DNA of 8,238 bases from a virus (Duplodnaviria; Heunggongvirae; Uroviricota; Caudoviricetes). The position numbers and the translations under genes are program-made. Positions 1 through 7,285 of the stretch are shown in pieces. How positions within the stretch are numbered: the stretch's first letter is position 1; each line of letters begins with the position of its first letter. The notes under the pieces were generated by a model, which searched no databases, was not told the DNA's origin, and saw only the letters and a list, made by a program, of their open reading frames with translations. The stretch lies in the IMG/VR virus record IMGVR_UViG_2548876694_000021; one strand, written 5' to 3'.

Positions 1-30
1 GGGCGATTAACATCGCCTTTTGCTGCTTCA
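1..30 (-). CDS. hok: Hok/Gef-family type I toxin, 5' end only (first 10 codons MKQQKAMLIA; gene runs off the left edge)
   Basis: ATG at 30..28 on the minus strand, preceded by AAGGAG (reverse complement of 41-46). The peptide start MKQQKAML matches my recollection of Hok/RelF-type toxins. Only 30 nt are visible, so this is family-level only. Confidence 0.4.
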
Positions 31-250
31 TAGCCTGCTTCTCCTTGCCTTTCGGCACGTAAGAGGCTAACCTAGATTTGCCGTTCATAGATTGAGCCTC
101 AGATTAATGTTAAGCGTCTTGCAGGACGCGTAATGTTAACTGGGGCTTTTCTCTATCTGCCGTTGGTGTTCATGCCCGAGGCAGATAGCCTCAAGCACCC
201 GCAGCTATTCTACTTAACTTCCCATTACCTCGCCAATATGAAATCGGTCA
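31..250 (-). promoter_or_regulatory. Putative hok mRNA leader (mok-like upstream start codon at 89..87; expected target region of a Sok-type antisense RNA)
   Basis: Minus-strand sequence upstream of the hok-like ATG reads ...AGCCTCTTAC...GCAAGGAGAAG...ATG, resembling hok leaders as I recall them from plasmid R1. An upstream ATG (89..87) sits in mok-like position. Extent and the antisense RNA are not resolved. Confidence 0.3.
153..188. repeat. 9-bp perfect inverted repeat (CTATCTGCC ... GGCAGATAG) with an 18-nt loop
   Basis: Read directly: 153-161 is the reverse complement of 180-188. It lies within the putative hok leader and could be one of the mRNA folding elements. Confidence 0.6.
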
Positions 251-635
251 GAAAGACAGACGTCCCATAAGGACAACAACGGAAAAAGAGATTTTGCTTG
301 ATGCTATTTACCTCTGCACCATGAAGTTGCGCCAAAATCCCAGTGGTGATAACAGGAATTTGGTTGTTGGTGATTGGGGAAAGAAGTACGTTAGACTGTG
401 GGTTAGTTCATTGACATGATAGTTACCTGCCTTCAATTTCCTAAGCAAGCGATGTAAACGATAATCAATATCAAATGTATTGACAGGTAAAATAATAACG
501 ATGTACCTTTGCTGATAACATATATCAGTCTTAAATCATAATGGAGGTAGATAAAATAACTAAACACACACAACAAATTTTTTATCAGTGACATAGCATA
601 TCTTAAGCATCCTTTAATGCTCATGGGGAGAACGC

Positions 636-1409
636 ATGACTAAACATATGGACATTCATTGTCAAACACGCATATTTAACTCAATTAACCATGACACCAA
701 ATATAAAATATGTATTTTTACTCCAAAAAACATTAAAAAAAATAATGCAACTCTTTATATACTTGATGGGAATAGTGCCAACAATTACATTTCTGATATT
801 CTGCCTGTTATTGATGCACTACCCAATCCACCAGTGTTAGTTACACTTGGTTATGAATCTTGGAATAACCTTAGCATTCATCGCCGTGCTTACGATTATA
901 CTCCTGATGGTGAAAATGCTATTGTTGATAACTCTAAACCAGCATGGATCTACTTTACTGGTGGAGGAAGCCAGTCTTTCCGAGAATTATTACTAACTCA
1001 GATCATGCCATGGGTTAGTACTATTGCTCCGAACAGTTCCAGAATCGGTATATGTGGGCACTCGCTAGGTGCTATTTTTGTGCTTGATTGCTTAAAAAAT
1101 AATTCATGCTTTAACTATTATTATATATCTGCACCATCACTTCTATGGCAGAATGAAAGAATCATCAAGATAATTAAAGATGATATATCAGAATCAAAGC
1201 ACACTAAAAGTATATGCTTGCTTAACGGAAATCTTAGCCTTGATTACTCCGCATCTTTATATCCTGAAGCCATCAAAGCGGAATCTGTTTTGAGAAATAT
1301 TTTGACAGAAAAATACAGTAATTTTTCTATTGTACAATTTCCAGAGCTCAATCATCAGGAGACTTTCTCTGCTGCACTCTGGAATAGCATTATTCATTTC
1401 AGCATATAA
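636..1409 (+). CDS. Esterase-family alpha/beta hydrolase (Fes/IroE/esterase-D-like fold, GHSLG nucleophile motif); AT-rich cargo gene
   Basis: 257-codon ORF with GGGGAG 5 nt upstream of the ATG. Contains ...LYILDGNSA... and ...IGICGHSLGAIFVLD... (a GxSxG serine-hydrolase motif), typical of the putative-esterase family. No signal peptide is evident. Composition is strongly AT-rich, unlike the phage genes to the right. Confidence 0.75.
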   Translation: MTKHMDIHCQTRIFNSINHDTKYKICIFTPKNIKKNNATLYILDGNSANNYISDILPVIDALPNPPVLVTLGYESWNNLSIHRRAYDYTPDGENAIVDNSKPAWIYFTGGGSQSFRELLLTQIMPWVSTIAPNSSRIGICGHSLGAIFVLDCLKNNSCFNYYYISAPSLLWQNERIIKIIKDDISESKHTKSICLLNGNLSLDYSASLYPEAIKAESVLRNILTEKYSNFSIVQFPELNHQETFSAALWNSIIHFSI

Positions 1410-6806: not shown

Positions 6807-6998
6807 ATGGGTACAGCCCTTTCTCCGATAGTTTCAGAATTCGAAACTACCGAACAAGAAAACAGTTACAACGAATGGTTGCGCACTAAAGTAACGTCAA
6901 GCCTTGCAGACACTCGCCCCGCAATTCCACATGACGAGGTAATGGCTGAAATGGAAAATCTTATTGCTCAAATTGCTGTAACTAACAAGAGCGAGTAA
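6807..6998 (+). CDS. paaA: Type II antitoxin partner of ParE (PaaA-like, 63 aa)
   Basis: GAGGAG lies 7 nt upstream of the ATG. Small acidic protein (…SEFETTEQENSYNEWLRTKV…HDEVMAEMENLIAQI). Its stop overlaps the toxin start (TAATG at 6996-7000). It resembles PaaA2 of E. coli O157 prophages as I recall it. Confidence 0.72.
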   Translation: MGTALSPIVSEFETTEQENSYNEWLRTKVTSSLADTRPAIPHDEVMAEMENLIAQIAVTNKSE

Positions 6999-7285
6999 TG
7001 TTACCCATTTTATGGCTACCGTCTGCTCGCGATGATTTGCGCCAGATCATAACTTACATCGCCAAGGAGAACCCACCGGCAGCACGTAGACTAAAAATAC
7101 GCATTGAAACATCGGTATTACCTCTATCTGAGCATCCGTACTTATATCCACCAAGCGAACGGGTTTCTGGATTGAGAGAGATCGTGACCCACCCTAACTA
7201 CATAATCCTGTACAGAGTAGCTGCTTCAAGCATTGAGATTGTAAGCGTGACACATTCTCGGCGACAATTTCCCTTCTCTATCTGA
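6998..7285 (+). CDS. parE: ParE/RelE-superfamily type II toxin (ParE-like, 95 aa)
   Basis: The MLPILWLPSARDDLRQI...EHPYLYPPSERVSGLREIVTHPNYIILYRVAASSIEIVSVTHSRRQF pattern is characteristic of ParE toxins. It is translationally coupled to the antitoxin gene. Confidence 0.85.
   Translation: MLPILWLPSARDDLRQIITYIAKENPPAARRLKIRIETSVLPLSEHPYLYPPSERVSGLREIVTHPNYIILYRVAASSIEIVSVTHSRRQFPFSI

Follow-up and report, generated by a model that had tools for sequence, protein, structure and literature searches.

In the hok/sok locus (parB) of plasmid R1, the full-length hok mRNA is locked by pairing of tac with fbi, ucb covers the Shine-Dalgarno (SD) sequence of mok, and 3' trimming leads to pairing of tac with ucb and of the mok SD with dcb (PMC9841398, PMC1635323). 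The 11-nt 5' tail of the antisense RNA Sok recognizes a loop found only in this refolded mRNA (PMC9841398, PMC1635323). The element names used here (tac, ucb, dcb, and fbi) follow PMC9841398; GAGG is also the mok SD of R1. For phage-borne loci, the nearest characterized relative of the locus described here is hokW-sokW-mokW of VT2-Sakai (Sakai prophage Sp5, AP000422), whose HokW is only 44% identical to R1 Hok at the protein level. HokW is toxic and is neutralized by sokW, partly dependent on RNase III and Hfq; sokW is lost after mitomycin C treatment, and deletion of the locus resulted in a two-fold lower release of Sp5 (Takada et al. 2021, PMC8621323). In E. coli K-12, HokD has been reported to be toxic. 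As summarized in bioRxiv 10.1101/2025.08.07.668861, the chromosomal hokA, hokB, and hokC loci that were tested showed no postsegregational killing.

Here, we analyzed a stretch of 8,238 nucleotides of viral DNA (the window; IMG/VR record IMGVR_UViG_2548876694_000021), at the left edge of which a preliminary description had proposed a partial hok/sok-like type I toxin-antitoxin locus. RF01794 ("sok") was the sole Rfam match in a scan of the whole window. It covered positions 200 to 26 on the minus strand (107.1 bits, E value 3.1e-24) and spanned model positions 1 to 157 of 157, against a gathering score of 59. This match greatly exceeds chance expectation and, together with a 51-aa Hok/Gef open reading frame in the identical genomes, bears out the proposal, and the locus is partial only in that the window stops 10 codons into hok. 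Thus, window positions 1 to 236 are read as belonging to an intact type I toxin-antitoxin locus (hok/mok/sok) that falls into the hokD/hokW subgroup and of which they make up the 5' two-thirds, with a probability that we put at about 0.93 from sequence comparison. Such a locus is ordinary, known, and already annotated, the gene being named hokD in RefSeq. Since the match is to the hok-sense strand and the hok start codon forms the end of the model, what the model represents is the leader of hok mRNA, to which Sok is antisense. As a separate observation, RF01794 is named "sok antitoxin" and yet models the hok mRNA leader in its refolded form (tac/ucb and SD/dcb), not the Sok strand.

Window bases 1 to 450 are 100% identical to many chromosomes of Shiga toxin-producing E. 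coli (STEC), and 8,166 of the 8,238 window bases are 100% identical to O121:H19 chromosomes. The leftward extension beyond the window was therefore made through 100%-identical RefSeq chromosomes, for example that of O121:H19 strain 16-9255 (L004, in which position x corresponds to window position p = 11167 - x). Judged by sequence identity, the host element is a lambda-like STEC prophage of the Sakai Sp4 type. The same slot in O157 Sakai ("prophage Sp4, lambda-like phage") carries a 213-nt mok-hok open reading frame annotated as ECs_1080, "phage maintenance protein." The hok locus is flanked on one side by an oppositely oriented esterase (alpha/beta-hydrolase) cargo gene and on the other by DUF968, rusA, and Q late-control genes. 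Both the neighboring cargo island and the separate type II module in the immunity region that the preliminary description had mentioned were found, the former as this esterase gene and the latter as a RelB-family antitoxin and RelE/ParE-family toxin pair. The coordinates of the main features are collected in Table 1.

Table 1. Features of the hok/mok/sok locus and its surroundings in the window. mRNA numbering: nt n = window position 201 - n.
Feature	Window position	Strand	Basis or remark
hokD, first 10 codons (MKQQKAMLIA)	1..31, ATG 31-29	-	gene runs off the window
hok SD, AAGGAG (mRNA nt 155-160)	41..46	-	read from sequence
mok reading frame (ATG at mRNA nt 113-115)	1..88, ATG 88-86	-	translation; layout as in mokC, mokW, and ECs_1080
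mok SD, GAGG (mRNA nt 101-104)	97..100	-	8 nt before ATG 88-86
hok mRNA promoter, -35 TTGGCG (236-231), 18-nt spacer, -10 TAGAAT (212-207)	207..236	-	promoter scan
hok mRNA 5' leader (mRNA nt 1-169)	32..200	-	RF01794 full-length match, 107 bits
tac, GGGUGCUUGAGG (mRNA nt 1-12)	189..200	-	partner fbi (full-length mRNA) or ucb (shortened mRNA)
5' hairpin, stem 188-180 / 161-153 (mRNA nt 13-21 / 40-48)	153..188	-	in RF01794 consensus
ucb (mok anti-SD), AAGCCCC (mRNA nt 53-59)	142..148	-	pairs with mok SD region or tac by fold
dcb, AGCCUC (mRNA nt 133-138)	63..68	-	pairs with GAGGCU in shortened mRNA; stem also in RF01794 consensus
sok promoter, -35 TTGCCT (45-50), 17-nt spacer, -10 TAACCT (68-73)	45..73	+	read from sequence
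Predicted Sok antisense RNA, 71-77 nt	80..150/156	+	ends by homology to sokW and sokC
Hypervariable patch round the invariant mok ATG, 96-89 and 85-75 (19 nt)	75..96	-	alignment of phage-borne loci
Esterase / alpha/beta-hydrolase cargo gene	636-1409	+	adjoins hok locus
RelB-family antitoxin and RelE/ParE-family toxin pair	6807-7285		beside repressor-like gene, immunity region

The start of a minus-strand gene behind an SD, noted previously, was confirmed, and the leader motifs said to precede its ATG were found on the minus strand as AGCCTCTTAC at 68-59 and GCAAGGAGAAG at 48-38. In the mRNA, the hok AUG occupies nt 170 to 172. Only hok codons 1 to 10 lie inside the window, and the remainder was deduced from identical genomes. 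In O121:H19 strain 16-9255, which is identical to the window, the full hokD product is 51 aa long (MKQQKAMLIALIVICLTVIVTALVTRKDLCEVRVRTGQTEVAVFTAYEPEE), in agreement with the length of about 50 aa anticipated for a Hok protein. The E2865 copy, which is one residue off (I34V), matched Pfam HOK_GEF over profile positions 1 to 42 of 42 (E value 1.2e-23). Residues 6 to 24 (AMLIALIVICLTVIVTALV) form a single, N-terminal, unbroken hydrophobic stretch, as read from the sequence. RefSeq annotation of the locus comprises the toxin open reading frame only. In addition, hok codon 47 (L004 11274-11276, beyond the window) is TAC for Tyr with G as the next base, which gives the motif UACG. For the hokC, hokD, and hokE mRNAs, A-to-I editing by TadA has been described to recode that Tyr to Cys and to boost toxicity (preprint 10.1101/2025.08.07.668861).

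An upstream mok-like ATG had also been noted, and it can now be specified as the ATG at 88-86, which lies 19 codons upstream of hok, in frame, with the reading frame open through hok. The resulting product is 70 aa long in the identical genomes. Another ATG, at 173-171, was considered as the mok start and rejected, as it is followed by a stop after 6 codons. In-frame mok is normal for this subgroup because mokC and mokW are annotated alike, although mok of R1 lies in another frame than hok. Among 78 phage-borne loci from IMG/VR, mok is a 70-aa in-frame open reading frame in 67. Nine of the 78 carry the allele ATG--CGACACATAGAGATT, in which a 2-nt deletion puts mok out of frame and leaves a 19-codon leader open reading frame whose TGA stop overlaps the hok ATG (ATGA). 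An out-of-frame mok that ends at the hok ATG fits the view that it is translation reaching the hok start that matters, not the Mok protein.

Upstream of the leader, the hok promoter was the sole sigma-70-like site returned by the promoter scan, with G200 as the predicted +1. The hok -10 and +1 (GGGTGCTTGAGG) are kept in the paralogs and in K-12 hokC. Just upstream of this promoter, window positions 251 to 275 (minus strand, the hok-sense strand) hold a terminator-like hairpin, TGTCCTTATGGGACG, with a T-rich tail; it might insulate hok against read-through from the phage early-right operon. The 5' leader is 100% identical in the O121, O26, O103, O145, and E2865 chromosomes and 99% identical in Sakai. 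When the leader was compared with hok/sok loci, as the preliminary description had proposed, it could be aligned to the hok/sok family along its entire length, and all but about 11 of its bases match VT2-Sakai hokW-sokW. The 9-bp inverted repeat recorded there is exact (153-161, CTATCTGCC; 180-188, GGCAGATAG) and corresponds to the 5' hairpin of RF01794. A long hairpin at mRNA nt 60 to 98 exceeds its counterparts in hokC and the Rfam consensus by 16 to 18 nt. Outside the window, fbi (CCUCAACGCACCC) was read in L004 at mRNA nt 375 to 387, followed by an intrinsic terminator.

The R1 scheme was reflected in the predicted folds. In the minimum-energy fold of the 418-nt mRNA (-175.6 kcal/mol, z = -8.7), nt 1 to 12 (tac) pair with nt 375 to 387 (fbi), and the ucb region (nt 54 to 61) pairs with nt 99 to 106, hiding the mok SD. 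When the mRNA was cut in silico at nt 360 to 375, tac nt 1 to 8 instead paired with ucb (nt 53 to 59) and GAGGCU at nt 101 to 106 paired with dcb, leaving nt 117 to 124 unpaired as an apical loop. Thus, in these models, folding alone reproduces the known switch from full-length to truncated hok mRNA. Applied to 11 paralogous leaders of the O121 chromosome, RNAalifold recovered both the tac/ucb stem, in which one pair showed a compensatory change from U-A to C-G in 3 of the 11 paralogs, and the 5' hairpin, in which 4 of the 9 pairs showed compensatory changes.

The putative sok promoter matches the consensus weakly and was not flagged by a generic promoter scan, but all long-hairpin paralogs have kept it. 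To obtain their "pro-less" sokW mutant, Takada et al. altered the same -10 hexamer with primers YO-421/YO-422, which change TAGGTTAG to CCGGCTCG on the hok-sense strand (PMC8621323). Both the annotated K-12 sokC and VT2-Sakai sokW place the 5' end of the predicted Sok at G80, opposite the third base of mok codon 3. The 3' end would fall at 150 by homology to sokW, giving 71 nt, or at 156 by homology to sokC. The predicted Sok fold consists of a single-stranded 5' tail at about 80 to 93 and then a long hairpin at 94 to 146, with a folding energy of -31 to -33 kcal/mol (z about -5.2). Sok is predicted to cover both the mok SD and the mok start codon.

Between +1 and the hok ATG, the only differences of the hokW locus from the window are two single-base changes and changes at 8 of the 11 positions that follow the mok ATG. 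Both loci have the same leader architecture with an extended hairpin for Sok (predicted in the window), the same sok -10, an in-frame 70-aa mok, and a 51-aa Hok, and both are carried by a lambdoid prophage. The change after the mok ATG, which falls in the patch described below, alters the first 6 nt of Sok in the hokW locus. HokW also differs from the HokD of the window at its C terminus (VFVDYESEK versus VFTAYEPEE) and at residue 34, and it belongs to another prophage and slot. K-12 hokC/mokC/sokC (gef) is of the same subgroup: its mok extends hok by 19 codons in frame, and the start of its Sok lies opposite the third base of mok codon 3. It differs in being chromosomal, where the locus of the window is phage-borne, and in the length of sokC (59 nt), the predicted Sok hairpin of the window being about 16 to 18 nt longer; nucleotide identity is about 70 to 75%. 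R1 hok/sok shares tac, fbi, ucb, dcb, and the mok SD GAGG, and its folding switch is also predicted here, as is an antisense Sok whose 5' tail is single stranded. R1 hok/sok is, however, plasmid-borne, has a Sok of 64 nt, and has mok in the different frame mentioned above.

The Hok protein of the K-12 copy of hokD (relF, in the cryptic prophage Qin) differs from that of the window by one residue (I34V). The DNA of this copy is identical to window positions 1 to 45, which reach from the hok SD to the tenth hok codon, and beyond the window end it is 98% identical to the E2865 copy through fbi and the terminator. K-12 Qin also shares the neighboring DUF968 (ydfU) gene. However, the 3' end of relE is fused just upstream of the hok SD in K-12, and therefore K-12 hokD has no hok promoter, tac, ucb, mok start, or sok. 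An Rfam scan gave no RF01794 match in the K-12 Qin region, whereas hokC and hokW do match. Since the K-12 gene is a truncated fusion from which the leader is absent, the window holds the complete form of the locus. The breakpoint of the relE-hokD fusion was located at window position 45, immediately 5' of the hok SD (L002 3245-3289 versus window 1-45). An origin of K-12 relBE-hokD by simple deletion from such a prophage was considered and rejected: no DNA similarity exists between relBE and the RelB/ParE-type pair that this prophage carries, and the latter pair is on the strand opposite hok. Only ydfA, hokD from the SD onward, and ydfU are shared between the K-12 Qin region and this prophage.

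Alternatively, the locus could have decayed into a silent remnant that makes neither toxin nor antitoxin, as in the case of the five hok loci of K-12. K-12 hokD has lost its entire leader, IS186 lies beside K-12 hokC, a leader-only relic without hok is present in the same O121 genome as a copy of the locus described here, and the chromosomal hok loci assayed for killing were reported to be inactive. Because those loci mediated no killing, intact sequence is not proof of activity. Nevertheless, every known element of the locus is present and foldable. The 174-nt leader is 99 to 100% identical across six STEC serotypes, with the hok ORF and fbi intact at this slot in each of these genomes, and the near-twin hokW-sokW is functional. 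We thus regard decay as very unlikely for this copy.

A plus-strand open reading frame of 45 aa at 133-270, annotated as a hypothetical protein in Sakai (ECs_1079), could in principle be encoded instead of, or besides, the RNA elements, and we consider this more improbable still. The frame exists, but it runs antisense across the conserved hok leader and promoter, where the conservation is explained by RNA structure with compensatory changes. Furthermore, it has been dropped in the current RefSeq annotation of the O121, O26, O103, O145, and E2865 chromosomes, and it is probably no gene. An intact hok/mok/sok locus stands as the preferred reading.

For such a locus, a mechanism can be proposed by homology with R1 hok/sok and Sp5 hokW-sokW, folding being the support for it here. 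The promoter at 236-207 would give an mRNA of about 418 nt starting at G200, carrying the 70-aa mok frame with the in-frame 51-aa membrane toxin HokD, and the plus-strand promoter at 45-73 would give the Sok RNA of 71 to 77 nt (80 to 150/156). The full-length mRNA would be silent, with tac bound to fbi near the 3' end and the mok SD sequestered by ucb. Slow 3' trimming would then remove fbi and allow the tac/ucb pairing and the mok SD/dcb hairpin to form, the loop of which would be the landing site for the 5' tail of Sok. As long as Sok is present, the Sok-mRNA duplex would stop translation of mok, and hence the coupled translation of hok, and would be cleaved by RNase III. When the unstable Sok is no longer renewed, upon prophage loss, transcription shut-off, or induction, Hok would be made and the inner membrane depolarized.

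The most likely role of the locus would be to aid host lysis and phage release upon induction, as measured for hokW-sokW; this role is transferred from a relative whose Hok C terminus (...VFVDYESEK in HokW) differs from that of the window (...VFTAYEPEE). Prophage maintenance and the exclusion of other phages are alternative roles that may apply. Phage exclusion has been reported for R1 hok/sok against T4.

The locus is not the only one of its kind in its host genomes. On the O121:H19 chromosome, 12 RF01794 matches scored above the gathering score, among them five of the hokD type with in-frame mok and one leader-only remnant. This remnant (L016, NZ_CP022407 1251032-1251202) keeps the segment from tac to the sok -10, is diverged from dcb on, and has no hok open reading frame; it may be an orphan sok or mere decay. 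More generally, STEC chromosomes carry 4 to 6 copies of the hokD/hokW subtype each, which differ almost only in the Sok recognition tail. When the O121 paralogs were aligned, nearly everything was invariant except the bases on either side of the mok ATG.

The extent of this variation was determined in 78 IMG/VR loci whose Hok is 96 to 100% identical to that of the window. The sample was drawn with Hok alone as the query, as the Mok-Hok protein used as the query biased it to the patch allele of the window itself. In the 78 loci, 18 alleles of the 19-nt patch were found. Among 61 distinct long-hairpin loci, the mean pairwise distance was 0.327 in the patch, against 0.023 elsewhere in the transcript and 0.011 at the third positions of hok codons. 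In these phage-borne hokD/hokW loci, the variability of the patch is thus about 14 times that of the remaining hok transcript, and the most variable 19-nt window of the transcript starts at nt 105 to 108. In other words, loci that are otherwise 97 to 100% identical carry at least 18 very different versions of the patch.

The patch is complementary to the predicted 5' tail of Sok and makes up the apical loop region in the target hairpin of Sok; the Sok 5' tail and the target loop are a known recognition determinant (PMC1635323). Its variability, taken together with this role in recognition, fits a diversification of specificity such as has been described for the Sib/Ibs type I toxin-antitoxin family, in which variable target-recognition domains offer a parallel (PMC2943612). 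Tentatively, and with less than even confidence, we suggest that the 19 bases round the mok ATG could be a swappable specificity cassette and that co-resident hok/sok copies in STEC could be mostly insulated from one another. The patch allele of the window (AACGGCAAATC) stays with this prophage slot in O121, O26, O103, O145, E2865, and Sakai. Avoidance of shared alleles among co-resident copies would be a direct prediction of such diversification, but it was not significant in six STEC chromosomes: an allele is shared in 3 of 53 locus pairs (one in O145 RM9872 and two in Sakai), and about 5.7 would be expected from the allele frequencies in the phage sample. The newest large survey of Hok is without an analysis of Sok, mok, or the mRNA, and the hypervariability of the Sok tail may be new.

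The identification itself adds little, as hokD is named in RefSeq, ECs_1080 is annotated in Sp4, and the near-identical hokW-sokW has been characterized. However, a hokD locus can be seen here in its complete form, whereas the textbook K-12 hokD is a 5'-truncated relE fusion starting at window position 45. In addition, exact base positions can now be given for the mRNA elements, mok, and the predicted Sok RNA, where RefSeq marks the toxin open reading frame only. If the patch is indeed a specificity cassette, the loss or induction of one prophage would not be covered by the Sok of another. Near-identical copies that differ in the Sok tail therefore provide a modest lead, namely, a testable hypothesis on the cross talk of co-resident prophage toxin-antitoxin modules.
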